Assembly: GCF_000025505.1 (NCBI RefSeq)
Contig: NC_013849.1
Coordinates: forward strand, 1,740,001 to 1,772,000
Length of the DNA stretch: 32,000 bases
Source of the DNA: Ferroglobus placidus DSM 10642
GTDB taxonomy: Archaea; Halobacteriota; Archaeoglobi; Archaeoglobales; Archaeoglobaceae
Reading direction: 5' to 3'
The notes beneath the pieces are model-generated. The model was not told the origin of the DNA and did no database searches. It saw only the letters and a program-made list of their open reading frames with translations. Shown here in pieces: positions 2,357 to 28,524 of this stretch (position 1 is its first letter; each line of letters begins with the position of its first letter). A program made the translations under genes and the position numbers.

Positions 2357-2896
2357 TCACCACGGAACGTCTTTCAGCTTCAGCAGATAAGCTATTCTGT
2401 TCGTCAGAACGTGCAAAATCGGTGTTATGAGGAAAGCTATTAAAACGTTCTCGAAGCTGAACACCTTCCAAAATGCTTCGGAGAAGGAAGCTATTAAGAG
2501 AGCGAAAACCAAAAAGTCGAGCTGGTCTAAAATCGGAGCCTTTTCTCCCCTCATCAGTCCAATTCTCCTTTTAATAAAACTTCCAGTTAAATCTCCAAGA
2601 AGAGATCCGAAAGAGAGGAGAAAAGCGAGCTGGAGAAACTGGAAATACTGGAGAGAAGAGAAGATTGTAAAACCTGCGAACTTCTCAACAAAAAGCTGAA
2701 GGTGAGCGACGAAAATTCCGCCGATCAAGCCGGAGAAAAAACCTCTAAAGGTTTTACCGTCACCGAAAATTCTCCTGCCGTCGACAAATTTTTTTCCGAA
2801 GTCAATCGGAAATCCTCCTCCGAAAACGACGGCGAAATTATTAGGGGTGTAAGCGGGAAGGAGAATCCAGATAGTTTTTAATATCTCAAGGAGCAT
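2357..2896 (-). CDS. carS: CDP-archaeol synthase (CarS, DUF46 family)
   Basis: Polytopic membrane ORF with 'LLPAYTPNNFAVVFGGG.PIDFGKKF.DGRRIFGDGKTFRGF', characteristic of CarS. Confidence 0.85.
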   Translation of the reverse strand: MLLEILKTIWILLPAYTPNNFAVVFGGGFPIDFGKKFVDGRRIFGDGKTFRGFFSGLIGGIFVAHLQLFVEKFAGFTIFSSLQYFQFLQLAFLLSFGSLLGDLTGSFIKRRIGLMRGEKAPILDQLDFLVFALLIASFSEAFWKVFSFENVLIAFLITPILHVLTNRIAYLLKLKDVPW

Positions 2897-2965
2897 ATTT
2901 CCAGCTGACGAAACGTTATTATATCTCTTTCGCAGTCCACATTTTATAAAAAGGGAGGTGGAATA

Positions 2966-5455
<2,490 letters not shown>

Positions 5456-18120: not shown

Positions 18121-18504
18121 TTAGTCATAGTCGCAGGAAACGACGGGAATGCTCACTTCGATCTCATCGTAGGGAACGACAGGAACCTTTCTTCTCCTCT
18201 TACCTTTTTTCTCTTCCACGAATTTGACGAGTCCGAGCATTTCGAGAATTTCCAGATCCTTGATCACGTTCCTCCTGTTCCTCCCCAACAACTTAGCCAG
18301 TTCGTAAACGCTTTTCGGATTCTTCTCTTTTATCACGTGCAGAATCTTCAACCTTTCCGGAGTCAGAATTTTTCTGAGCGCTTCGTAACTCTCGAAAACG
18401 ATTCTCTCGAACTCCACATCCTCTCCTTCATCGATTCTCCTCGCTACCTCCAAAAGTTCCTCCCTACTATCTCTCCTCCCGATCTCAATCCTCAACTTTA
18501 CCAT
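18121..18504 (-). CDS. HTH DNA-binding protein, putative antitoxin partner
   Basis: 'LTPERLKILHVIKEKNPKSVYELAKLLGRNRRNVIKDLEILEMLGLVKF' is a wHTH. The ATG at 18504 overlaps the 3' end of the upstream toxin-like frame. Confidence 0.6.
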   Translation of the reverse strand: MVKLRIEIGRRDSREELLEVARRIDEGEDVEFERIVFESYEALRKILTPERLKILHVIKEKNPKSVYELAKLLGRNRRNVIKDLEILEMLGLVKFVEEKKGKRRRKVPVVPYDEIEVSIPVVSCDYD

Positions 18505-18799
18505 ACAGCACCTCCTCCACGATTTTAACATCCTCGAAGAACCTCTCAATCAGCTTTTCGACGCTTTCAAACTCTATTCCCTCCTCTTTATCGAAGAAGT
18601 GTCTGTGGTGTCCTTATCCCCTTTCGTTGTCGTAGCCGAGAACTCTCCTGTAGCTTTCGCCTTCAACGTGAACGTAAGCCATCGAGTACTTCACACCTCG
18701 GGAAAATCCTCGGACTTCGGAACCCTTCAAATATTGATCCGAATAATGTCCCCATGATCGTTGACCTCCTTGTAATCCACGAGCAATTTTGCCATTCAA
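18485..18799 (-). pseudogene. DUF6516-like putative toxin gene interrupted by an in-frame TAA
   Basis: The frame reads '...KYSMAYVHVEGESYRRVLGYDNERG*GHHRHFFDKEEGIEFESVEKLIERFFEDV...'. The stop (18614..18616) sits between the 'YDN' and 'HHRH' halves of the family motif, and the reading frame continues for 42 more codons. Confidence 0.5.
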
Positions 18800-18853
18800 T
18801 ATGTGTTATGTAAGCACACATATTTAAAGCTATCGAGTTTAGGCAGCTCCCCC

Positions 18854-18892
18854 TCGTTATCACCTTAGAACTCGCTAAGGTTTTGGTGCAAA
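18854..18892. repeat. Copy 1 of a perfect 39-bp direct repeat (TCGTTATCACCTTAGAACTCGCTAAGGTTTTGGTGCAAA)
   Basis: Identical to 20196..20234. It contains the hairpin ACCTTAG-aactcg-CTAAGGT followed by TTT. Confidence 0.95.
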
Positions 18893-18925
18893 CCTTTTTA
18901 TTCTTAAAAAAGGGTAAGAGAGGAT

Positions 18926-19930
18926 TTGTGGAGGAAATTGAAGCAAATTGCTGAATCTCTGAACGCCAACATTTCAGATCTACTCGAAACGAAGATTATC
19001 GAGCTAATAGCAGTTTACGAATCGTTTTTGGGAACGGGCCGGGAGGGATTTGAACCCCCGACCGCGGGATTAAGAGTCCGTCAGAGCTTCGTTTCCTTTG
19101 ACCTCCGTGAATTTTACTCCAAACACGAATCGGAGTTCAGAGAATGGCTCTACGGTAGAATGTCCAAGAAATCCGCTGATCAGTATTTGAGCGCCATAAA
19201 AAGGTATTTACCTCACGGAGTTAGCGAACCGAAAGACCTCGACCGTTTAGTGACGAAAACCAAGTACCTCCCCTTAGGAATAAGGAATTTCTTAAACTTC
19301 CTCGAAGATCAGTACTACATGGACAACCTTGGGGGATTCAGCTTCGCCATATGGAGGAAGCACTTACCGACGAAAACCGGAAACAAGAAAGGAGAAAAGA
19401 TCTTCTTGACCGATAAGGACGTCGTGAAATGCTTTAAGCTGATAAAAGAAAAGTGGAACGACGAAGTAACGATAAACCTCTACAAACTCCTCGTATTCTC
19501 GGGGATAAGACTTGAACATGCTTACAGACTCCTCGAAAGCTTCGATAAACGAAAACTGATAATAGAGGGTAAAGTAGCCATGTATCCGATCGAGGAAATT
19601 ACGAAAGGACATAAGAAGGGTTACTTTGCTTTCCTACCGGCGGAATTTGCCAGAAAGTTGGAAAAATATGACATGATGAAACTCGCAGCCTACAAAAGCA
19701 GATTAACTCCTAAACAATGGAAGCCACCGGTTGACAGTCCGGTTTCCCCGATTAGAATTAGAGCGTGGTTCCAGAACTTCGCCATCGAGCATGGAGTGAA
19801 GACCGAAGCTCTTCGCTTCATTGTCGGACATTCCCCGGCAACCGTCGGAGAAGCTCACTACTACAACCTCAAGAAGATCGCTAAGGAGGAGTACAAGAAG
19901 ATCGTGGACAAGTTCCCAATACCACCTTGA
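18926..19930 (+). CDS. int: SSV-type tyrosine recombinase; chimeric ORF of a foreign int(N)-like remnant, attL and int(C) of the resident element
   Basis: 334-aa ORF with a TTG start. The C-terminal 'IRIRAWFQNF...LRFIVGHSPATVGEAHYY' is a tyrosine-recombinase catalytic region. Codons 36-52 are the tRNA-derived att sequence 'GTGREGFEPPTAGLRV'. Confidence 0.8.
   Translation: MWRKLKQIAESLNANISDLLETKIIELIAVYESFLGTGREGFEPPTAGLRVRQSFVSFDLREFYSKHESEFREWLYGRMSKKSADQYLSAIKRYLPHGVSEPKDLDRLVTKTKYLPLGIRNFLNFLEDQYYMDNLGGFSFAIWRKHLPTKTGNKKGEKIFLTDKDVVKCFKLIKEKWNDEVTINLYKLLVFSGIRLEHAYRLLESFDKRKLIIEGKVAMYPIEEITKGHKKGYFAFLPAEFARKLEKYDMMKLAAYKSRLTPKQWKPPVDSPVSPIRIRAWFQNFAIEHGVKTEALRFIVGHSPATVGEAHYYNLKKIAKEEYKKIVDKFPIPP
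19031..19079. repeat. attL: 49-bp copy of the tRNA-Lys 3' part
   Basis: Base-for-base identical to 27663..27711 (GGAACGGGCCGGGAGGGATTTGAACCCCCGACCGCGGGATTAAGAGTCC). Confidence 0.95.
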
Positions 19931-20195
19931 GATTCAAGCTTCCGTTCATTCCTCACAACCAAGAGTTTGAGCTTATTGATCTGTTGATATACGAGGCTAA
20001 GAGGTGGTGGACATATGCAAGCTTCATCACAGTCTTTTTGAGGTCCAATGGCAGTTCCTACGATGAAAACGGTATACCGCAAAACAAGGACTCGAGTCCT
20101 GAGACAAACAGTATACCATTTCTTCCACCAAATCTCAACGAGAAAACCAGAGGAAAACACGCGAACTGCCCTACCTTTTTCCCTTTGTTACCCCT

Positions 20196-20234
20196 TCGTT
20201 ATCACCTTAGAACTCGCTAAGGTTTTGGTGCAAA
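20196..20234. repeat. Copy 2 of the perfect 39-bp direct repeat
   Basis: Identical to 18854..18892. It lies 266 nt downstream of the int stop. Confidence 0.95.
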
Positions 20235-20538
20235 ACTCGACTCTGATCAATATCGATAAACGTGCATGTTGAAAAATATAGATAAATCCATACATATATG
20301 CCGAGAGTCGGAACTAATCTACGAAAATATAATAATAGGCTTAAATATTTTGCAAATTGGCATAAAGGCTCGAATCGGTAAAGCTTTTAACGTTCAGGCT
20401 ATAATAAGCTATTGAACATAAAAGCTATTGAATAAAAATTATAAAATTCTTTTTATATTATTCAACTCTGCGATAAATTTTTAAGAATCTGGCTCTAATG
20501 TTTAATGATCTTGTGTTTGGCAAGGAGGTGAGAACCGG

Positions 20539-20799
20539 GTGTTCGGTAGGTTGAAGCTTGCCTGGAGAATATACAAAGCTTACATGCAGTTCGTCAAGGA
20601 GACCAAGGGTGAAATGACGCTCGTGGACTGGATCAAAGGAGTCATCATACTTTCGGTGCTCGGAGTCGGTGTCGGCTTGCCGATCGTGATAAAGACGATT
20701 CAGAGCGTGAACATCACAGACCCAACGACGTCGCTCGTCGTGAACTTCATTCCAGCTATCGTTGCCGTGGCTTTGCTTCTCGGCTACCTCGGGAGATAG
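20539..20799 (+). CDS. Small two-helix membrane protein, candidate spindle-virus-type major capsid protein
   Basis: GTG start 8 nt after AAGGAGGTGA. Two hydrophobic helices ('GVIILSVLGVGVGLPIVI' and 'LVVNFIPAIVAVALLLGYL') flank the polar loop 'KTIQSVNITDPTTS', which holds an N-x-T sequon. It is the only plus-strand gene in this part of the element. Confidence 0.6.
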   Translation: MFGRLKLAWRIYKAYMQFVKETKGEMTLVDWIKGVIILSVLGVGVGLPIVIKTIQSVNITDPTTSLVVNFIPAIVAVALLLGYLGR

Positions 20800-20835
20800 A
20801 AAAAGCGGCGATTGCAGAGGGCTTGAAGCTTTAAC

Positions 20836-20851
20836 TTCTTTTCTCTTTTTT
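20836..20851 (+). terminator. Oligo-T tract (TTCTTTTCTCTTTTTT) downstream of the 86-aa gene
   Basis: A T-rich run about 35 nt after the stop. Archaeal termination typically uses oligo-T. Confidence 0.35.
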
Positions 20852-20957
20852 GTGCCGGTTGATAATATATTAAATTGAGGAAATATTCTGCAGATCTGCC
20901 TATCAATTCAATAAAAATATTAAAAACCTCGAAGTATTATGCGATTTTGCAACTTTG

Positions 20958-21200
20958 TCAAACCACCTCTCTCTCTTTCTCCCTCTTCCTTAGATGCCGT
21001 CCGTTGAATTTAGCTTCGATCAGATTCAAGAGCTTCTCCACAGCCTCGATAACCTTTTCCGGCTCTTCGCCGTCGAATCTTACGGAGATCTCTACTCCTC
21101 CACCATCCTCATTAATTCCGGCTTTGAGAACGACTTCCCGAACTGGATAATCCTCCTGAACAATCTCCTCAGCTTCTTCACCGGTTTCCTCCCTCCTCAT
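20958..21200 (-). CDS. Hypothetical acidic protein (80 aa), last gene of the element's minus-strand operon
   Basis: Its start overlaps the upstream stop by 4 nt. The opposite-strand ORFs are S/L-rich shadows. Confidence 0.45.
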   Translation of the reverse strand: MRREETGEEAEEIVQEDYPVREVVLKAGINEDGGGVEISVRFDGEEPEKVIEAVEKLLNLIEAKFNGRHLRKREKEREVV

Positions 21201-21364
21201 AGATATCCCCTCCTCCTTAGAAACTCCTCAAGAGCTAAGTTGATAGCGTCGGAGAGCTTCAAGCCGTTTCTTTTGATCGCATTCACAAGCTCTCTTTCAA
21301 TCCTCACCGTAGTTTTTACTCTGTCTTTTTTCTCCAGCTTGAGGAGTCTTTTTTTAGTTATCAT
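21197..21364 (-). CDS. Ribbon-helix-helix (CopG/Arc-like) protein
   Basis: 'VKTTVRIERELVNAIKRNGLKLSDAINLALEEFLRRRG' has the beta-strand plus two-helix RHH pattern. The ATG at 21364 overlaps the upstream stop (ATGA). Confidence 0.6.
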   Translation of the reverse strand: MITKKRLLKLEKKDRVKTTVRIERELVNAIKRNGLKLSDAINLALEEFLRRRGYL

Positions 21365-21555
21365 GCTTGAGCTTCTTTCAACCTCCTCATAACCGTCCAC
21401 TTTGAAACTTCGTAACCTAACTGGGTGAGCTTCCACGCTATCATCTCGTAACTGTAACCTTTAGCTCTCAACTCCTTAGCTAAGGAGATGGGGAAAGTTT
21501 TCGGCTTCCTTCCTCCTCTCTTGGTTAGAAGAATCTCAGCTTTCATTTTCACCAC
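21361..21555 (-). CDS. Small HTH protein (resolvase/Hin-like HTH)
   Basis: 'GRKPKTFPISLAKELRAKGYSYEMIAWKLTQLGYEVSKWTVMRRLKE'. Confidence 0.6.
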   Translation of the reverse strand: MVKMKAEILLTKRGGRKPKTFPISLAKELRAKGYSYEMIAWKLTQLGYEVSKWTVMRRLKEAQA

Positions 21556-21566
21556 CTCTAAAAAAA

Positions 21567-21794
21567 TTAGGGAGAAGAGGTTTCCTCTATTTCTTTGAGC
21601 TTCTTGTTAAACTCTTCAACTCTGGGAATGAACGCTTTTAAGCTTTTCAAATAGTCTAAGTCACTTTTCACGTTCTCTATGATGCACTCCTCTAGATATT
21701 CGGTAAAGTCTTTCCCTGCCCATTCGCAAAACTCTTTTACCAACTCGTACAGCTCTTTCGGAATTTCCAGCTCCACCTTCACCCTTTCTTCCAT
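21567..21794 (-). CDS. Hypothetical acidic helical protein (75 aa)
   Basis: An ORF within the co-directional operon. No motif recognised. Confidence 0.45.
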   Translation of the reverse strand: MEERVKVELEIPKELYELVKEFCEWAGKDFTEYLEECIIENVKSDLDYLKSLKAFIPRVEEFNKKLKEIEETSSP

Positions 21795-21811
21795 ACTACC
21801 ACCCCAAAGAA

Positions 21812-22018
21812 TTAAAGGTGAAGTTCGGCAGTGCTCAAAGCCTTCTTAAGCTCCTCGAAGCTCTCTGAATCCATTTCTAAGGTTATGCTGTTTCCGATTC
21901 TCAAAACTGCTTTGTCGCTGAATTTCTCGACGCTCACGCCCCCTTCATATACATAGACGCCGATCTCCGCCAAACCATCTTTTCCGCTCACTTCCAACTT
22001 CGCCTTAACCCATCTCAT
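21812..22018 (-). CDS. Hypothetical protein (68 aa)
   Basis: An ORF within the operon whose start overlaps the upstream stop by 4 nt. Confidence 0.45.
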   Translation of the reverse strand: MRWVKAKLEVSGKDGLAEIGVYVYEGGVSVEKFSDKAVLRIGNSITLEMDSESFEELKKALSTAELHL

Positions 22019-22236
22019 ACCTTCTCACCTCCTCTCCTTTTTCTTCCTCCCCTTTTAACGGGAGGAGCGTAATCCGGGCATATTTTAGCACGTCCGCAAC
22101 TCACGACAACTTTCCAACGGAAGCAGTAAACGTAACCGGGTGTTTCCGCTTTCGAAGATTCCAAACAGTTAAAGCAATTCTGTTTTGGCTTCTTCTCCCT
22201 CTTCTGCTTCCGAACAACCTTAACGGGAGAGATCAA
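22015..22236 (-). CDS. Basic Cys-rich (zinc-finger-like) protein (73 aa)
   Basis: 'CFNC...C...C...C' flanked by K/R-rich tails ('RKQKREKKPKQ' and 'KRGGRKRRGGEK'). Confidence 0.5.
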   Translation of the reverse strand: MISPVKVVRKQKREKKPKQNCFNCLESSKAETPGYVYCFRWKVVVSCGRAKICPDYAPPVKRGGRKRRGGEKV

Positions 22237-22242
22237 TGAAGC

Positions 22243-22482
22243 TCACCCACTAAGGTCGTATTCGATTTCTTCCGCTTCCTCCACCTTAGGTTTTGATTCC
22301 CGGACCCAGAAAGCACCTACTTCTTTCCATCCGTCTCCTTCCCTGATCACCAATCGAAAATCAGGCTGTGATTTGCTCGATTTCTTCTCGTTCTTGAAGA
22401 GAAACGCCTCCCTCTCCCCCAAAACTCCGAAATCCAGATATCCGGCTAAAAACTTCTTACCGTTTCCTCCCACCTCTACCAC
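22243..22482 (-). CDS. DUF736-like protein
   Basis: 'FLFKNEKKSSKSQPDFRLVIREGDGWKEVGAFWVRES' follows the DUF736 pattern (N..K.s..PDyRi....g.e.GAaW.k.s) as I recall it. The start is more likely the GTG at 22473, 6 nt after GGAGGTG. Confidence 0.45.
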   Translation of the reverse strand: MVEVGGNGKKFLAGYLDFGVLGEREAFLFKNEKKSSKSQPDFRLVIREGDGWKEVGAFWVRESKPKVEEAEEIEYDLSG

Positions 22483-22903
22483 CTCCTAAGGGGTTTTCCT
22501 CCCTTGAGGGAGGAGCTTGAGAGATGAAACGGGAGAAAATATACTCTCCGAACTCTTCAACGCTTCCGGAGAAGACGGGGAGAAGTTGAGAAGCCTTCAA
22601 AAAGGGAGAGGATTCAACTTTTTGAGAAGTGTCATACTCATAGAGTTTGACCTGATCTCCTTCCCTTTCGATGTAAAATAGGGGGACCCTCAAGCATCGA
22701 GCTATTTTTTTGAGAGTTACAGCTTGATAGCCTCTTATCCTCAGATGACCGTTCTTTTCCTCGAATATTGCCACTATTCTTGGACCTACTTCCAAAACTG
22801 CGTCGATGTTTGTTATGACGACCTTTCCGGATCTATCTTTGTAAGGCTGAAGAGCTTCCCAGAGGGTGTTTTCGATGTATTGACCGCAGTGAGGACACTT
22901 CAT
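22457..22903 (-). CDS. Zinc-ribbon protein with a possible PD-(D/E)xK nuclease-like core
   Basis: N-terminal 'CPHCGQ', then 'ITNIDAVLEVGPRIVAIFEEKNG' (D...E-x-K spacing), and a Gly/Arg-rich tail. Its ATG shares one nucleotide with the prim-pol stop. Confidence 0.5.
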   Translation of the reverse strand: MKCPHCGQYIENTLWEALQPYKDRSGKVVITNIDAVLEVGPRIVAIFEEKNGHLRIRGYQAVTLKKIARCLRVPLFYIEREGDQVKLYEYDTSQKVESSPFLKASQLLPVFSGSVEEFGEYIFSRFISQAPPSREENPLGGGRGGRKR

Positions 22904-25551
22904 CAGCTCATCACCTCGGACATGTCCCAGCTCTCGTAATCTCCCTTAGAATCGAATTCTTCCTCCTCTGAACCGGTAAGGAAGTTGACGAATTCGGAAA
23001 ATGAGACAACAGCAGCCCAAGGAGTCTTATTTCCAATTCTAACCTTTCCATATCTCCACCCGAACCTCTCAGCTAAGGATTTGAGGGAATCGACCGGCAG
23101 ATCTTTGAGCACTTTCAAAACCGAGTTTGTTATCACGACGTCCTCTCCTTTCAGGAAAGCCCACGGAATGAAGTTCTCCTTTAGCAAAGCCTCAAGCCTA
23201 TACCTCAAGTCCGGAGCGTAAGAAGTTCCGTTCTCCAACACAACCTCAACCTTAGAAACATGCTTCGAATACCTGGAGTTGATGTCTTCAAGGAGCTTCG
23301 ACCTGATTTCTTCGTTGATTATCTCGGTTATTTCCTCCAAACTTTCTCCTTTATGCTCTTCTTCGATCCACTCCGGAATTTCAAGCTCAGCAAACTCGAA
23401 AGCCTCTCTAAGGAGTTGAGAGGAAAGTTCCCTCCAGTCTTTTTTGAGGAGTTCCGGATTTTCGGAAATTCTCCTGAAAACGAAATACCCTAAAAACCTC
23501 AGGTCGTAAATCCTCGGTAAAACTTCCCTTTCGAACTCTCTAGCCTTATCCTCCTTCACCCTGTCGGAAATCGTGAAGAGAATTCCGATGAACCTCCTTA
23601 GCAAAGCGTCATCAGCCGGGTAAGCTTTGTTTGTCGTGAAAATCATCGGAGACAAAGCCGGCTCTTCGACGTAAACTCCCTGAACGTATCTTCCTCTTGC
23701 GAAGAGCGTTTCAATCGAGGATTTCAGAACTTCCCTGATCGAGTCCTTGGCTAAAACTTCAGCAACCTCGTTTATCAAAACCGGGAAAGTGCTTTCGGAA
23801 ACTACTTTCCCGAATCTTGGAACCGTGTCGATATGGCTTCCTCCCTTCTCCTCCGGAGGGAGATTCCAGATCGCTCTTATTATCTTCCCTAAGGTGGATT
23901 TGCCGGTGGAAGCCGAACCGTGTAGTAAAAGCCAAGGAAAGTGGATTCCGTAAGTTCCCCTTATCTGTTTGATCGCATAAGAGAAAGGAGCGATTATTCC
24001 CCATTTTATGACGGTGGTGAACCTTTCGGCTAAGTGCTTATACCACTCCTCCCTTAGCTCTCTAAGGAGGAGAAGAGCTTTCCTGAGGTCTTCCTTCGTG
24101 AATTTTTCAGCGTTCCACTTTACAGCTTTTATTTCTCCGTCGATGTAGTAGAAACCGGGTTTTTCGAGCTCTCTTCTTATTTCAGCTTTCCCGTTCCTTA
24201 TGAAAGCGATGATCAAAGAGGAGAGAGCATCATCAACCAATCTCTTGTGCTTAACGACAGCTTCAGCTTTAAGCCTTGAAGCTATCGTTTCGAGATCTGC
24301 CGGACCTATTGTTTTCTTCAATAATCCATCGAATTCTATTTCGAACTTCCTGACTCCTCCGAGGGGATCCTCGTAAACGACAACCCTAACAGGACAGCAT
24401 TCAGCTATCAATTCTTTGTAAACAATTCCTCCGTTCTTTGAATCTTCGTAAGCTCTGGCAATTATCCCCTTTCTCGGATTTGCGACGTAGTAGAGCTTTC
24501 TTGAGAAGTCAATCAAGCTGAAAATGGAGTCTCGGAAGGGGGAAGATCTTCCCAGCTTCTCCTCAAGCCTCCTTATCAGTTCTAAGGATTTTTCCTCTCC
24601 GAAGAGCTTTTCCGCTATTTCTTGTAAACCTGTCTTACCTTTCAACTCTTCTTCACTCGGTGGATTTCCCCTTAGTCCGTAGGTCCTATCCAAAACATAG
24701 ATTCTGAGGTCTCTTTCCTCATCCTTTTCCGAAAGCAGATCGACGATTTTCTTCGCCGATTTGTAACTTATTCCGGCTTTCCTCAACCAGCCCGTGAGGA
24801 AGAGAATGATGTAATTCCTGAATCCAGGTCGATAAATCGGCTTGAGCAAATTGACGATTTCCAGAATTTCGGATTCGGAAAGCTCTCTTTCATCCTTGGA
24901 CGTCAAAGAATCTTTGGCTGAAATTTCTTCTGTTAATCCCTCTTCTGGAAGAGTCTCGTTCCTCTCCAGAATTCTAAGGAGGGTGAGGTATTCCTCCCAG
25001 CTCAATTCAGCTATCTTTTCAGGTTTGTTAACGAAACGATATTGTTTCCCGGAGGGATGAGGGGAAGGAGGAGCGACGACGAAACCTCCTTCGGCTCTTA
25101 TGTCGATCCCTTCTCTTATTCCTATCCTGTTGTGGAAGAGTTTAGGATCCGGATCCTTAACCCTTAGATAATAGTGGAAACCTTTCCCGGTCTCAACTAC
25201 CCAGGTGTTGATGAACTTCTCGTATAGGTTGCTATCCGATTCGTAAAGTTCGGCTAAGAAGTCGGATAAAACCTCTCTGTTGTCGAAATCGATCACTGCC
25301 AAATTTCCGGAAACGCTTCCGGTTACGATGGCTATTCCGATCTTGTTTCCCTTCCTTATGGCTTCAAACTGCTCTGGATTTTCAAACCAGCTCCTAACCT
25401 CTTCTAAGGTGGGAGGAGAGAGCTGGTATTTCTTCCAGTCCACTAAAGCTGGCTTTCTCGATCTGCCATCGGGTAACCTGATTAAAGCGACGGGGATAAC
25501 CGAAAATCCTTCCCGGAGGTATTCCTCAGCAGCTTTTAATAACTCCTCCAT
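22903..25551 (-). CDS. Replication protein: bifunctional primase-polymerase (prim-pol) fused to an SF3/D5-like helicase (pRN1 ORF904-like)
   Basis: 882 aa. N-terminal 'GFSVIPV', 'AVIDFDN', 'GFHYYLRV' and 'GIDIRAEGGFVVAPPSPHPSGKQYRF' are prim-pol motifs. It also has Walker A 'LLLHGSASTGKST' and Walker B-like 'FPVLINEV'. GGAGGT lies 9 nt upstream of the ATG. Confidence 0.9.
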   Translation of the reverse strand: MEELLKAAEEYLREGFSVIPVALIRLPDGRSRKPALVDWKKYQLSPPTLEEVRSWFENPEQFEAIRKGNKIGIAIVTGSVSGNLAVIDFDNREVLSDFLAELYESDSNLYEKFINTWVVETGKGFHYYLRVKDPDPKLFHNRIGIREGIDIRAEGGFVVAPPSPHPSGKQYRFVNKPEKIAELSWEEYLTLLRILERNETLPEEGLTEEISAKDSLTSKDERELSESEILEIVNLLKPIYRPGFRNYIILFLTGWLRKAGISYKSAKKIVDLLSEKDEERDLRIYVLDRTYGLRGNPPSEEELKGKTGLQEIAEKLFGEEKSLELIRRLEEKLGRSSPFRDSIFSLIDFSRKLYYVANPRKGIIARAYEDSKNGGIVYKELIAECCPVRVVVYEDPLGGVRKFEIEFDGLLKKTIGPADLETIASRLKAEAVVKHKRLVDDALSSLIIAFIRNGKAEIRRELEKPGFYYIDGEIKAVKWNAEKFTKEDLRKALLLLRELREEWYKHLAERFTTVIKWGIIAPFSYAIKQIRGTYGIHFPWLLLHGSASTGKSTLGKIIRAIWNLPPEEKGGSHIDTVPRFGKVVSESTFPVLINEVAEVLAKDSIREVLKSSIETLFARGRYVQGVYVEEPALSPMIFTTNKAYPADDALLRRFIGILFTISDRVKEDKAREFEREVLPRIYDLRFLGYFVFRRISENPELLKKDWRELSSQLLREAFEFAELEIPEWIEEEHKGESLEEITEIINEEIRSKLLEDINSRYSKHVSKVEVVLENGTSYAPDLRYRLEALLKENFIPWAFLKGEDVVITNSVLKVLKDLPVDSLKSLAERFGWRYGKVRIGNKTPWAAVVSFSEFVNFLTGSEEEEFDSKGDYESWDMSEVMS

Positions 25552-25711
25552 TCCTGATTACCTCCCTCAGTAAGCAGAATTCGGAGAGGAAGTAACCGCA
25601 AAGAGTAGAATCGGTTCGACAGATCGAGGGAAGATCCGATAACTTTATAACGGTGCATTTCCTCCTTTTCTTAGGGATCAGCACACTTCCAGGGGTTTGC
25701 GACCTTCTCAT
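25526..25711 (-). CDS. Hypothetical small Cys-containing ORF bridging the RHH and prim-pol genes
   Basis: It fills the 156-nt gap, and its start overlaps the RHH stop (ATGA). No motif, so it may not be translated. Confidence 0.3.
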   Translation of the reverse strand: MRRSQTPGSVLIPKKRRKCTVIKLSDLPSICRTDSTLCGYFLSEFCLLREVIRNGGVIKSC

Positions 25712-25917
25712 CCTTGATCCTCCCTTATTTTTTCAAAATCGACTCCGAGAAACATGGCATAGTGTTCGATTGCTCTTCTTAGAATCTCAGAAACGGATTG
25801 ATGGGCTATAGGCTTCGAATATTCTCCTCTAAGGATGAGTTCGAGGAGTTTAGCGTGTTCTGGGTAAACTGTGGCTGTGATCTGGATTTTGTTCCACTTG
25901 GTTTGGATCCCGACCAT
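25708..25917 (-). CDS. Ribbon-helix-helix (CopG-like) regulator upstream of the replication gene
   Basis: 'IQITATVYPEHAKLLELILRGEYSKPIAHQSVSEILRRAIEHY' fits the RHH pattern. GGTGA lies 7 nt upstream of the ATG at 25917; the track starts at the GTG at 25923. Confidence 0.65.
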   Translation of the reverse strand: MVGIQTKWNKIQITATVYPEHAKLLELILRGEYSKPIAHQSVSEILRRAIEHYAMFLGVDFEKIREDQG

Positions 25918-25932
25918 TTTCACTCACCTATT

Positions 25933-25999
25933 GAAGTTACTCACACTTTGAAGAAATTTGGATAACAATATTTAAATACTTTTCGATGTGAGTAACTTC
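25933..25999. promoter_or_regulatory. Divergent promoter/operator: a 13-bp perfect inverted repeat (GAAGTTACTCACA / TGTGAGTAACTTC) flanking the TATA box TTTAAATA (25971..25978)
   Basis: The repeat arms are at 25933..25945 and 25987..25999. The TATA box lies 22 nt upstream of the ATG at 26000. Confidence 0.55.
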
Positions 26000-26572
26000 A
26001 TGAGTCGAGAAACTATAGGGTTGATTGTTGAAGCTTTATCAGAAGGTCCTAGGGGGTGGAAAGAGTTAAAGGAAAGAACTGGTCTTTCAGATGGGACTTT
26101 AGCCAAGTATTTAAAAAAATTAATTGAAGAAGGTCTCATATCAGAAGAGATTGATAAAAAAGATCGAAGAAAGAAAATCTACAAGCTAATACCCACTGAA
26201 AAAACGTTTGAGTTATCTTTGCAAAGAGTTATTGCTAAACTATTTTTGATTTATTTAAGGTCAGTTTTGGAAGAAAATGAAAAGATGGAAGACCTTGAGA
26301 GAAAAACTGGTAAAATTGTTTTGATCTGCCTCTTTGGAGGCGATAGAGGTAAGGAAATCTGCAGAATTATGGTGGAAAACTTCCAAGAATTTATGAAGGA
26401 CTTAGAGAGCGATATTCCTGAACGTTACAATAGAGAGTTTAATGAATTATGGGAAGACTTCTCTAAAGAAATAATGGAGTTGTTTAAATCTGAACTCAGA
26501 ATAGATCCCAAACTTCTCGATCCTAAGAAGTATTGGATAAGGTTCGACATAGATACTACTGAAGATGACTAA
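26000..26572 (+). CDS. Winged-HTH (MarR/ArsR-like) regulator with a C-terminal helical domain
   Basis: 'GPRGWKELKERTGLSDGTLAKYLKKLIEEGLISEEIDKKDRRKKIYKLIP'. The ATG at 26000 is favoured as a leaderless start; the track begins at the GTG at 25988. Confidence 0.7.
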   Translation: MSRETIGLIVEALSEGPRGWKELKERTGLSDGTLAKYLKKLIEEGLISEEIDKKDRRKKIYKLIPTEKTFELSLQRVIAKLFLIYLRSVLEENEKMEDLERKTGKIVLICLFGGDRGKEICRIMVENFQEFMKDLESDIPERYNREFNELWEDFSKEIMELFKSELRIDPKLLDPKKYWIRFDIDTTEDD

Positions 26573-26614
26573 AATCCATTTCAAAAATTTTGTATAAAAT
26601 AATTTTTTAAATCT

Positions 26615-26892
26615 GTTCCACGGGAATAACAGAGCTTTATTCCGAAAACTAAGGGAGAATATTGCCTAGATTTTAAAACAACCTATGTTCCGCAATATGG
26701 AACCTTACGGAACAAGGTTATTTTCCCTCAGTTTTCGATTTGGAGTGATTTGATGGGTTTTTTGATGTTGTGTTCCGCACCTTATTAGAGGATACCCCAA
26801 ACTTTTTGATGAGTTCACAATTCTTTACGGAACAGTGGAACAATGGAACACTAAGAATGGGTGGAACCTACGGAACAACGGAACATTGGAAC
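26615..26892. repeat. Iteron field: 9 direct GGAAC(A) copies and 3 inverted GTTCC copies in a non-coding 436-bp gap
   Basis: Direct GGAAC starts at 26699, 26709, 26829, 26837, 26845, 26863, 26872, 26880 and 26888. Inverted GTTCC starts at 26615, 26687 and 26772. TACGGAACA occurs three times and TGTTCCGCA twice. Confidence 0.85.
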
Positions 26893-27008
26893 ATTTTAAT
26901 TCATATTTTATTAAATTAAAAAGAAAGAAACTCTCTCTCATCCCTTAGTGTTCGCATGCCAAACTTGAAATCCCAAACCCTTTTAACATTCTTGATGAAT
27001 TAAGAAAC

Positions 27009-27227
27009 ATGCAAGAAGCGAAGGTGAAGGAAGTCATCTTCCTTGTCGAGGAGACGGATGAAGGATTTACGGCGAGGGCTTTAGATTACTCGATCTACAC
27101 TGAAGCCGATACGCTTGATGAGCTAAAGGAAATGATCAAGGATGCCGTGAAATGCCATTTTGATGAAGAGGAGAGACCGAGAATCATCCGACTTCACATC
27201 GTTAAGCAAGAGGTTTTGACGTTATGA
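27009..27227 (+). CDS. hicB: HicB-like antitoxin
   Basis: 'VIFLVEETDEGFTARALDYSIYTEADTLDELKEMIKDAVKCHF' matches the HicB N-terminal fold pattern. It overlaps hicA by 4 nt. Confidence 0.7.
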   Translation: MQEAKVKEVIFLVEETDEGFTARALDYSIYTEADTLDELKEMIKDAVKCHFDEEERPRIIRLHIVKQEVLTL

Positions 27228-27466
27228 AGCTTCCGAGAGACATTAGCGGTCTGGAACTTGCGAAACTCCTTAGGAAATTCGGTTACGAAATTACAAGACA
27301 GACTGGAAGCCACATTCGTCTTACTACCCGTTTGAAGGGAGAACATCACATCACGATCCCGAAACATAGAAATCTCAAACCGGGAACGTTAAACGCCATT
27401 TTGAAGGATGTTGCCGATCATTTAAGAATCGATAAAAAGGAACTGATACGGGAATTGTTCGGATAG
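27224..27466 (+). CDS. hicA: HicA-family mRNA interferase toxin
   Basis: 'LELAKLLRKFGYEITRQTGSHIRLTT...HHITIPKHRNLKPGTLNAILKDV' carries the HicA/YcfA signature, including GSH and P.H..L..GTL..IL. Confidence 0.8.
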   Translation: MKLPRDISGLELAKLLRKFGYEITRQTGSHIRLTTRLKGEHHITIPKHRNLKPGTLNAILKDVADHLRIDKKELIRELFG

Positions 27467-27503
27467 TCGCAACTTTTATTTTTATTCACACGTATGAATC
27501 AAT

Positions 27504-27662
27504 ATGCCCCGTCAAAGTCAGGACAAGGTGAAATTAACATTAACCATAAATAAAAACGTTCTCGAACGAGCTAAGGAATTAATCCCCAACCTTAGCGCCT
27601 TCGTCGAAATGAAGCTTCGAGAATACGTAATTTTGGCAGAACACGGGTTATTCGACGAAAAT
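27504..27662 (+). CDS. int: int(N): N-terminal fragment of the element's partitioned integrase (RHH-like), reading into attR and the tRNA
   Basis: 'VKLTLTINKNVLERAKELIPNLSAFVEMKLREYV', then the att-encoded 'GTGREGFEPPTAGLRV'. Codon 54 starts exactly at att, the same phase as at attL. Confidence 0.75.
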
Positions 27663-27711
27663 GGAACGGGCCGGGAGGGATTTGAACCCCCGACCGCGGG
27701 ATTAAGAGTCC
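27663..27711. repeat. attR: 49-bp repeat (4 nt plus the 3'-terminal 45 nt of tRNA-Lys)
   Basis: Identical to 19031..19079. Confidence 0.95.
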
Positions 27712-27740
27712 CGCGCTCTACCTGGCTAAGCTACCGGCCC
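27667..27740 (-). tRNA. tRNA-Lys (anticodon CUU), 74 nt, no encoded CCA
   Basis: The hand-folded cloverleaf is GGGCCGG / GCTT-GAGC / CGGGA-CTCTTAA-TCCCG / GGGGG-TTCAAAT-CCCTC / CCGGCCC-G. The anticodon loop CT-CTT-AA gives CUU. Confidence 0.9.
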
Positions 27741-27798
27741 ACTAAAAACTAAGCTCGTTTCTCGATTTATCAAGTTTTTGGTAATTGAAAAAGCCCTG

Positions 27799-28435
27799 TC
27801 AACTTAACCACCTCAGATGATTGTAATAGAGCATGAAGAGTTTGCAGAATAGATTCCAGTTTTTAATTGGATTTTTAGTGGAAATCGAACAGAAGAACAG
27901 CTTAACTCTCTGTTTAAATGAGCTGAACGTCGCTTCAACCAGACTTCTCTTTCCGAAAGGTTTCATGCTTAAATTCCAAGCCTAAACTTTCTATTGCTTT
28001 TCTCAGCCATGGTGCTTTGTCTATCAAAAACTTGGGTTCGTTCTCGCAGTAATTAAGAACTTCTTTGACGAAAGACCTTGCTGTAAGAATGTTTCTCGTC
28101 GTGTAAACCCTCATTAAAATCAGCTCGTTCCTTTCAACGTCTACCGCGGCAAAAATGTAGAACTTCTTTTTGTTAGCTTTGACAATCGTTTCATCTATTG
28201 CAACAAGATTTCTCCGCTTCTTCTCAGTAGAAATTGGTAACTTCTCTTCAAACTTCTTTATCCATTTCCACACAGCCGTATGGGAGACCGGACGAAACTC
28301 CGAGAGAATTTTAACCGTTCTCCTCGTCGAAGAAGTTTGAACGTAAGTGGCTACGCCAAGAATTCTAATGTCGTTCGGAACTCTTTCCCTCTCAAACAAC
28401 TCAAGCTCCTCTATAAGCTTCTTCAACTTCATCAA
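27799..28435 (-). pseudogene. IS6-family DDE transposase, frameshifted
   Basis: 'LVAIDETIVKANKKKFYIFAAVDVERNELI...FLIDKAPWLRKAIESLGLEFKHETF', then a stop. Another frame continues 'GKRSLVEATFSSFKQRVKLFF...', the conserved E-containing C-terminus. The frame switch is near 27950..27956. I could not define terminal inverted repeats. Confidence 0.7.
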
Positions 28436-28524
28436 AATTGTCTGAATAATATTCTGGGAAGGTAAAGTTTACGGGTCTGAAAGGTAAGCGTACAAGAACG
28501 GAGTCCTACGGAAAGAGTTAGCGA

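Follow-up and report, generated by a model that had tools for sequence, protein, structure and literature searches.

The window analysed here is a stretch of 32,000 nucleotides from the genome of Ferroglobus placidus DSM 10642 (contig NC_013849.1, positions 1,740,001 to 1,772,000, forward strand), and all coordinates below refer to it. It carries an 8.7-kb integrated plasmid in which a 278-bp field (26615-26892) is densely set with the short repeat GGAAC. On the basis of sequence comparison and by analogy with characterised replicons, the field is read as the iteron-type replication origin of this plasmid, which is of the pORA1/pRN kind; a probability of about two in three is assigned to this reading. 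The repeats are arranged in a geometry that is conserved among related elements, and their sequence co-varies with the wing of the element's replication protein (Rep). Most likely, the field joins a known class, that of iteron origins recognised by an initiator-helicase with a winged helix, as in staphylococcal pathogenicity islands (SaPI Rep/ori) and phage P4 (alpha/ori), and the archaeal case would be new.

On the + strand, GGAAC starts at 26699, 26709, 26829, 26837, 26845, 26863, 26872, 26880 and 26888, and the inverted copy (GTTCC) at 26615, 26687 and 26772, exactly as listed in an earlier note on this DNA. The field thus holds 12 copies, with seven direct ones packed within 64 bp (the main array), where the start-to-start steps are 8, 8, 18, 9, 8 and 8 bp. 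The repeat unit is YGGAAC(A/C), with GGAACA in 10 of the 12 copies. The longer identical words described earlier were recovered with the same counts: TACGGAACA occurs three times when CTACGGAACA at 26868 is included, TTACGGAACA twice (26705 and 26825), and TGTTCCGCA twice (26686 and 26771). Elsewhere in the window GGAAC/GTTCC was found 63 times in 31.7 kb, which gives 0.55 copies expected per 278 bp (Poisson P ~1e-12), and in 200 windows simulated with a first-order Markov model the densest 278-bp stretch held at most 6 copies. Outside the element, GGAAC pairs with 9-bp spacing were also seen inside an HVO_A0114-type winged helix-turn-helix (wHTH) gene (18173-18281; starts at 18173/18182 on the + strand and 18268/18277 on the - strand), where they are probably due to chance within coding sequence.

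The field is situated in a 436-bp gap (26573-27008), for which the earlier note had rightly claimed the largest size in the element and the lack of a credible open reading frame (ORF); the longest ORF inside has 49 amino acids (aa). This ORF (26770-26919) was rejected as coding: its similarity to the corresponding region of a related element, L004, consists of shared repeats only, it is not conserved where the repeat word differs, and the 8-bp period, not being a multiple of 3, counts against a coding role. Among known RNA families (Rfam), only the tRNA was found in 18500-28500, and nothing in the gap. The scan for bacterial-type promoters and terminators gave no match, these models being inapplicable to archaea. 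The runner-up among the non-coding stretches of the element measures ~300 bp (20238-20538, 31% G+C), lies upstream of a small membrane-protein gene, and carries the direct repeat AAGCTATTGAA twice; no iteron array and a single GGAAC copy were found there.

The main array is divided into two blocks on the + strand: three direct YGGAACA copies at 8-bp spacing (26829-26850) and four direct GGAAC(A/C) copies spaced by 9, 8 and 8 bp (26863-26893). Directly 3' of the array is an AT-rich stretch with 8% G+C (26893-26929), a candidate DNA-unwinding element, and the module is closed by the motif CCCTTAG (26942-26948, + strand); CC(C)TTAG was also found 3' of the AT-rich stretch in the relatives read. 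On the other side, 57 bp ahead of the array, the inverted iteron at 26772 abuts the TATA-like sequence CCTTATTAGA (26780-26789), the two together covering 26772-26789 (- strand). In the upstream cluster (26686-26714), the inverted TGTTCCGCA at 26686 faces the direct copies at 26699 and 26709. The outermost inverted copy, TGTTCCAC (26614-26621, - strand), has a counterpart in L004 at equal offset (-213/-214). The upstream cluster is enclosed by a 19-nt inverted repeat (26643-26737, 89% complementary, 57-nt loop), the dimensions of which recall the origin stem-loop of plasmid pRN1. As a pRN1-like stem-loop, this repeat was found unconvincing, with a folding z of -2.3 (-0.9 and -1.6 in relatives) and a hairpin potential that stems from the inverted iterons.

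The window element was compared with 12 non-redundant relatives obtained by genome, metagenome and protein-collection searches (Rep 59-80% identical), including an element in the complete Archaeoglobus profundus genome and elements in Geoglobus and Archaeoglobus metagenome-assembled genomes. Across the 13 elements, the positions of the scaffold are kept to within a few bp. In the usual array, a triplet of direct copies spaced by 8 bp and a second set of three or four, spaced by 8-9 bp, have a gap of 18-30 bp between them; the exceptions are L018 and L028, with six uninterrupted copies, and L023, with four only. An inverted copy is present at -55 to -63 in 13/13 elements, abutting a C(C)TATATAG, TTATTAG or TTATACA box, and a direct copy at ~-120 in 10/13; the relatives have two or three further inverted copies at -134 to -154. 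The 40 bp 3' of the array contain 3-25% G+C in 12 of the 13 elements. In most relatives, as far as their DNA includes the flank, Int(N), the N-terminal part of the integrase gene, and the tRNA attachment (att) site come directly after the array.

The word repeated on this scaffold differs between elements. GGAAC is not enriched in L001 and L002, each of which has instead, at the syntenic position, its own array with an 8-bp period; on the locus strand the array reads TGTGTCCT in L001 and GTTACCTG in L002. Seven repeat words were found in the 13 elements, and the direct and inverted copies within one element share the word. Such uniformity across all copies of an element points to a sequence-specific protein that is encoded by the element itself.

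Among the element proteins compared, the only one whose sequence appears to follow the repeat word is Rep (882 aa; 22903-25551, - strand), which consists of an N-terminal archaeo-eukaryotic primase (AEP) primase-polymerase, a central P-loop ATPase and a C-terminal winged helix, and here it is only the wing hairpin that does so. The wing, a beta-hairpin, is formed by residues 833-850 (RYGKVRIGNKTPWAAVVS; codons at 23002-23055, - strand). GGAACA is found in the window and L004 with the wings RYGKVRIGNKTPWAAVV and KYGKVRIGKKTPWAVKV, GGTTACA in L011 and L013 with GYGPVRNEARVIKAIKV and KYGSVRNGNTVSKSIKV, and GGTCACA in L027 and L028 with SYGSVRTGSKFVKAAKA and DYSSVRIGSTKFVKGIKV. GGACACA (L001, L023) goes with the wing EYKSIR(T/V)NGRFSKGVKV, GGTAAC (L002, L014) with EYKNVK(I/V)(N/G)G(K/V)QGKRIVV, GGTAGCG (L016, L025) with KYGVH(R/K)VNGRNCKSIKV, and TGTAAC (L018) with EYGNIKVNGSQGRRIQV.

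Window-wise identity over the whole of Rep, calculated before the per-column test, did not track the repeat word. The per-column scan of the Rep alignment yielded exactly one strictly co-varying column, T843, which is located within a hypervariable 18-residue stretch directly after the invariant SLKSLAERFGW helix. In a 15-aa sliding scan (875 windows), the top 12 windows were all at residues 830-841, where identity was 0.78 in same-word pairs versus 0.30 in different-word pairs; the best unrelated window showed a difference of 0.28. The nearest neighbour shared the word in 12/12 cases when judged by the wing versus 2/12 when judged by the rest of Rep, and the observed nearest-neighbour value was reached in 0 of 20000 label permutations. 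Small wing changes accompany single-base changes in all 10-12 iteron copies of an element. A natural swap of this kind is seen in L011 and L027, which are 92% identical outside the wing, yet their wings differ and their words are GGTTACA and GGTCACA, respectively. Words were also predicted in advance for further contigs and confirmed in the two that could be read, P0007 (GGACACA) and P0017 (GGTAGCG; a close relative of L016), while contigs P0009 and P0004 were without the upstream region. The iterons are 3.9 kb away from the wing codons and recombination breakpoints lie between them, which makes simple linkage a poor explanation; the ATPase core of L004 is only 32-40% identical to that of the window, and wHTH genes have been swapped among elements.

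In Rep, Pfam detected the Prim-Pol domain (E 2e-29). The best plasmid match was RepA of pORA1 from Sulfolobus neozealandicus (33% identity, 96% of the length, E 3e-123), and t26-22p of pT26-2 aligned with residues 503-869. No D5_N/SF3 helicase was matched in Rep by Pfam at E up to 0.01 or by NCBIfam, and by sequence the only solved structure matched was the prim-pol domain of ORF904. The AlphaFold2 model of residues 470-882 (predicted local distance difference test score, pLDDT, 88) was matched by Foldseek to SCCmec Cch, SaPI Rep1 with double-stranded DNA (7pds) and minichromosome maintenance proteins (E 1e-6 to 6e-4), and also to the C-terminal region of NrS-1, papillomavirus E1 (E 1.9e-4), and the large T antigens of SV40 and JCV (E 6.3e-4). 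These are ring helicases acting as, or with, initiators. For residues 740-882, the pLDDT was 84 overall and >95 over the C-terminal domain, which is modelled as a helix, a hairpin, a short helix, helix 823-830 (LKSLAERF), strand 833-836, loop 837-844, strand 845-850 and a further helix. The domain is thus predicted to be winged-helix-like, with the co-varying residues forming its wing. The best Foldseek match of the isolated C-terminal domain was TcpK, a wHTH protein bound to oriT DNA (E 0.025, probability 0.98).

From the co-variation, and from the precedents of SaPI Rep, P4 alpha and pRN1 ORF904, a sequence of binding, oligomerisation, melting and priming by Rep can be proposed. Rep monomers would recognise each YGGAACA unit via the wing and the preceding LKSLAERFGW helix. 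The Rep molecules placed on the 3 + 4 direct repeats and on the inverted copies at fixed offsets would then form a ring helicase, as suggested by the hexamers of pRN1 ORF904 (PMC2777425) and by SaPI Rep. The helicase would open the 8% G+C stretch at 26893-26929, and the AEP domain of Rep would prime DNA synthesis. For the inverted copies that face the direct ones, loading of a second ring or control of the TATA-like promoter is a possible role. The earlier note had envisaged sites on slowly rotating faces of the helix, which does not agree with the geometry: a step of 8 bp turns ~274 degrees, so neighbouring sites are ~86 degrees, or about a quarter-turn, apart and the bound domains would spiral round the DNA.

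The closest parallels are found in bacterial satellite replicons. SaPI Reps are self-loading helicases with a C-terminal winged-helix domain that reads iterons of 5-6 nt, present in 6-12 copies beside an AT-rich region; each island has its own iteron word, and in SaPI5 a primase is fused to Rep (PriRep5) (PMC9371898). The window element resembles them in its putative winged-helix initiator-helicase, short iterons in both orientations, AT-rich region and element-specific word, and SaPI Rep1 and SCCmec Cch were among the top structural matches of the C-terminal half of its Rep. It differs in that SaPIs have bacterial hosts, no sequence similarity was detected between their Reps and that of the window, and the period in the window is 8 bp. 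Moreover, the SaPI ori is immediately downstream of rep and has an AT-rich centre, whereas the direct blocks of the window are one-sided and ~1.3 kb upstream of the rep operon. A single polypeptide unites primase and ring helicase with a C-terminal winged helix for origin binding in phage P4 alpha and, as proposed, in the window Rep, and the P4 origin has 8-nt repeats (TGTTCACC), direct and inverted, clustered in ori and crr (PMC2777425, PMC4234260). In P4, however, the primase is of the DnaG type and not AEP, the repeats are 9-11 bp apart, and ori and crr are two distant regions. No sequence similarity was found between the C-terminal domains of P4 alpha and the window Rep.

Among archaeal plasmids, the pRN family resembles the window element in that rep, of the prim-pol type, shares an operon with a ribbon-helix-helix (RHH) gene, a small wHTH gene lies close by and, in integrated forms, the integrase is of the SSV type. 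The C-terminal winged helix of pRN1 ORF904 binds DNA and has been proposed as the origin binder, the cognate site of which was never found (PMC2777425). The ATPase of pRN1 is a D5-type SF3 helicase, whereas this half of the window Rep is of the pORA1/pT26-2 t26-22p type; the t26-22p-type half replaces the SF3 helicase in pORA1 and pIT3 (PMC2926602). In the Thermococcales plasmids pTN2 and pT26-2, repeats 'reminiscent of iterons' have been described in the largest intergenic region (PMC2926602).

Arrays of short period next to rep were also found in more distant relatives, each with inverted copies and an AT-rich flank. In pORA1 (L030, 3040-3290), whose RepA, like the window Rep, is a prim-pol fused to a t26-22p-like ATPase half and alignable over the full length, an array ~180 bp downstream of repA has five GGC(A/T)ACA repeats at 8-9 bp, AT-rich DNA after them and inverted copies on their upstream side. 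In pIT3 (L032, 50-260), 3 + 6 repeats of ATGTCCAT with an 11-bp period are located just downstream of repA. These two plasmids differ from the window element in their crenarchaeal hosts (Sulfolobus neozealandicus and S. solfataricus) and in the position of the arrays directly downstream of repA. Plasmid pTI1 of Thermococcus indicus (L031, 7340-7500) has 3 + 3 repeats of ACCACCTA plus inverted copies. In the IMG/VR contig L214, a gene codes for a homologue (28% identity) of the half with the ATPase and winged helix, and just after this gene (2790-3060) an inverted GGTTACA, a CCTATAG box, and 3 + 3 TGTAACC repeats at 8 bp were found. The L214 wing, HYEPVKIDGKTARVMRV, has the VK(I/V)(N/D)G pattern common to the group with GTAAC words. 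Most of what three iteron-triplet scans of IMG/VR brought up was unrelated phage DNA; two contigs had a distant Rep relative beside a matching array.

Several observations weigh against the field being the origin. The pRN1 origin, which was defined genetically, is a stem-loop downstream of rep and has no iterons (PMC4234260); in the window, the ORF at 22457-22903 overlaps the rep stop codon and thus leaves no non-coding DNA directly downstream of rep for a pRN1-like stem-loop. In pORA1, pIT3 and SaPIs the array is downstream of rep, in contrast to the upstream position here, and the second AT-rich gap (20238-20538) is a possible place of initiation. The co-variation rests on six same-word pairs only, of which L016 and L025 are closely related, and the wings are ~60% identical within the GGTTACA pair and within the GGTCACA pair. 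The structural match of the C-terminal domain is weak. Finally, Rep might bind in order to control copy number or a promoter, and not to mark the start site.

This last point leads to the alternative that survives best, although it is rather unlikely: the repeats bind Rep but constitute a control region for handcuffing, copy number, incompatibility, or repression of the TATA-like promoter and the downstream integrase gene. The inverted copy that abuts the TATA-like box in every element, the position of the array directly upstream of Int(N) in most relatives, and the existence of a second AT-rich gap would suit such a role, and dual roles of iterons are well established as common in bacterial plasmids (cited in PMC2926602). 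The very AT-rich DNA directly 3' of the array in 12/13 elements is, on the other hand, the classic layout of an origin, and the scaffold is unchanged in the window although the hicBA genes separate the array from int. The arrays of pORA1, pIT3 and L214 adjoin rep and have no int gene beside them. Control and origin roles are, moreover, not mutually exclusive.

The earlier note had left three options open, namely an origin, a centromere-like site and the operator array of the adjacent wHTH protein. The first has gained from the co-variation with the Rep wing and from the AT-rich stretch. The other two now appear very improbable in the form considered, with the adjacent wHTH protein bound to the array as an operator or as a centromere, on the model of PlrA/ORF80 or AspA. 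The field always has the wHTH gene next to it, and the product of this gene gives weak Sulfolobus_pRN/ORF80 matches: PF05584 exactly at the 20.8-bit cut-off, outscored by generic wHTH models, and NCBIfam ORF80_fam with 13.3 bits versus a cut-off of 95 (E 0.057). The repeat word, however, does not co-vary with this protein. Same-word pairs have no meaningful similarity in it (the window and L004 proteins align over 26 residues, and L011 and L013 gave no match), and similar pairs have different words: L002 and L027, with 67% identity over 295 aa, have GGTAACC and GGTCACA, and L016 and L028 are 48% identical yet have GGTAGCG and GGTCACA. The promoter region between the divergent RHH and wHTH genes has an inverted repeat of its own, which is a better target for the wHTH protein. 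As for a centromere, the only element ORFs of at least 200 aa between the left and right attachment sites (attL and attR) are the integrase ORF (18926-19930, starting just left of attL) and Rep; there is thus no room for a ParA-type partner, which leaves this option without support.

The least probable alternative, which can hardly be upheld, sees in the repeats arm-type sites through which the SSV-type integrase organises an intasome beside attP: the array is 250-300 bp from the att core in most relatives and the N-terminus of Int(N) has an RHH-like strand-helix-helix pattern, but L004, L002 and L011 have three different words although they hardly differ in Int(N) and tRNA target, the DNA-facing strand residues are identical in L004 and L011, the window and L004 share the word and differ in Int(N) protein and tRNA target, and hicBA puts the window array ~770 bp from att.

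The remaining small proteins of the elements were likewise rejected as readers of the repeats. The slot of the RHH (CopG-like) protein is occupied by an AbrB-type protein in L004 and L018, and L002 and L011 have equal DNA-facing residues with different words. For the product of a Cys-rich ORF between RHH and rep, near-identity was found between the window and L011 despite their different words, and a difference between L011 and L013 despite their common word. In a 64-66-aa HTH protein the recognition helix is invariant, a second RHH protein is common to the window and L004 only, and the RHH-like part of Int(N) fails to track the word.

The element with this putative origin is bounded by a 49-nt exact direct repeat (attL 19031-19079, attR 27663-27711) that covers the 3' part of tRNA-Lys(CTT). 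Its SSV-type integrase was split by the integration into Int(N) (27504-27711) and Int(C) (19080-19930), both in frame through att. The N-terminus of Int(N) (27504-27600, + strand; KVKLTLTINKNVLERAKELIPNLSAFVEMKL) resembles an RHH domain in its strand-helix-helix pattern, as it does in the relatives, and does not co-vary with the iterons. The megablast search of the element against PLSDB gave no match. The RHH (CopG-like) gene (25708-25923, - strand; weak RHH_1 match) is followed by the prim-pol rep in a single operon, which is the pRN1-type arrangement. The wHTH gene (25988-26572, + strand; Pfam HTH_27/ArsR/MarR matches) is divergent from this operon and adjoins the field. The 41-bp AT-rich promoter region between the RHH and wHTH genes is flanked by an inverted repeat of 18-23 nt (CTCACCTATTGAAGTTACTCACA / TGTGAGTAACTTCATGAGTCGAG; 25923-26009), which is likely an operator for the RHH or the wHTH protein; most relatives have their own inverted repeat there, with varying length.

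The Cys-rich ORF (61 aa; 25526-25711, - strand) overlaps both RHH and rep and has no Pfam match. Its motif VIKLSDLPxxCxTDSxxCGxFLxxxCxLREV was found in 8/9 relatives with upstream ORFs listed, in diverged form in L001 and L013, and L002 has an AbrB-like protein in its place; the ORF may encode a genuine small protein or act as a conserved leader. The second RHH-like gene (21197-21436, - strand) is shared with L004 in its C-terminal 55 aa (KKRLLKLEKKDRVKTTVRIERELVNAIKRNGLKLSDAINLALEEFLRRRGYL; 50% identity). The hicB-like and hicA genes (27009-27466, + strand; HicA Pfam match) are situated between the origin module and Int(N) only in the window element and in none of the relatives read; a hicAB pair in L026 is placed elsewhere in its element.

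At the left end of the element, a 47-nt repeat (96% identical) was found within 18849-19030 and at 20191-20237, one copy outside attL and the other inside the element, and it contains the palindrome CCTTAG-N6-CTAAGG. From 18926 to 19030, a reading frame that continues into attL shows similarity to the C-terminal part of an A. profundus-type Int(N); the region 18849-19030 is probably a remnant of an older element in the same tRNA-Lys. Beside the attachment-site tRNA-Lys on the right, an IS-type transposase gene (DDE_Tnp_IS240) is located at 27935-28435 (- strand).

Archaeal plasmid origins and the recognition of DNA by their initiators are poorly known. The matched wing/word pairs, in seven flavours, make origin recognition in this plasmid superfamily directly testable. 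The 18-residue wing may, with somewhat less than an even chance, represent a compact and evolvable recognition code with at least seven mutually orthogonal replicon specificities, carried on an ancient archaeal nucleoprotein machine for loading a primase-helicase. The conservation of the geometry to a few bp, together with the looser-spaced arrays beside rep in pORA1, pIT3, pTI1 and L214, points to such an ancient and defined machine. On this view, the DNA site read by the winged helix of replication proteins in the pRN superfamily, missing for so long, would also be identified. Small compatible replicons of this kind could possibly be developed into shuttle vectors for Archaeoglobales and Thermococcales, and the primase-polymerase plasmids of archaea would be mechanistically tied to the bacterial SaPI and P4 satellite replicons.

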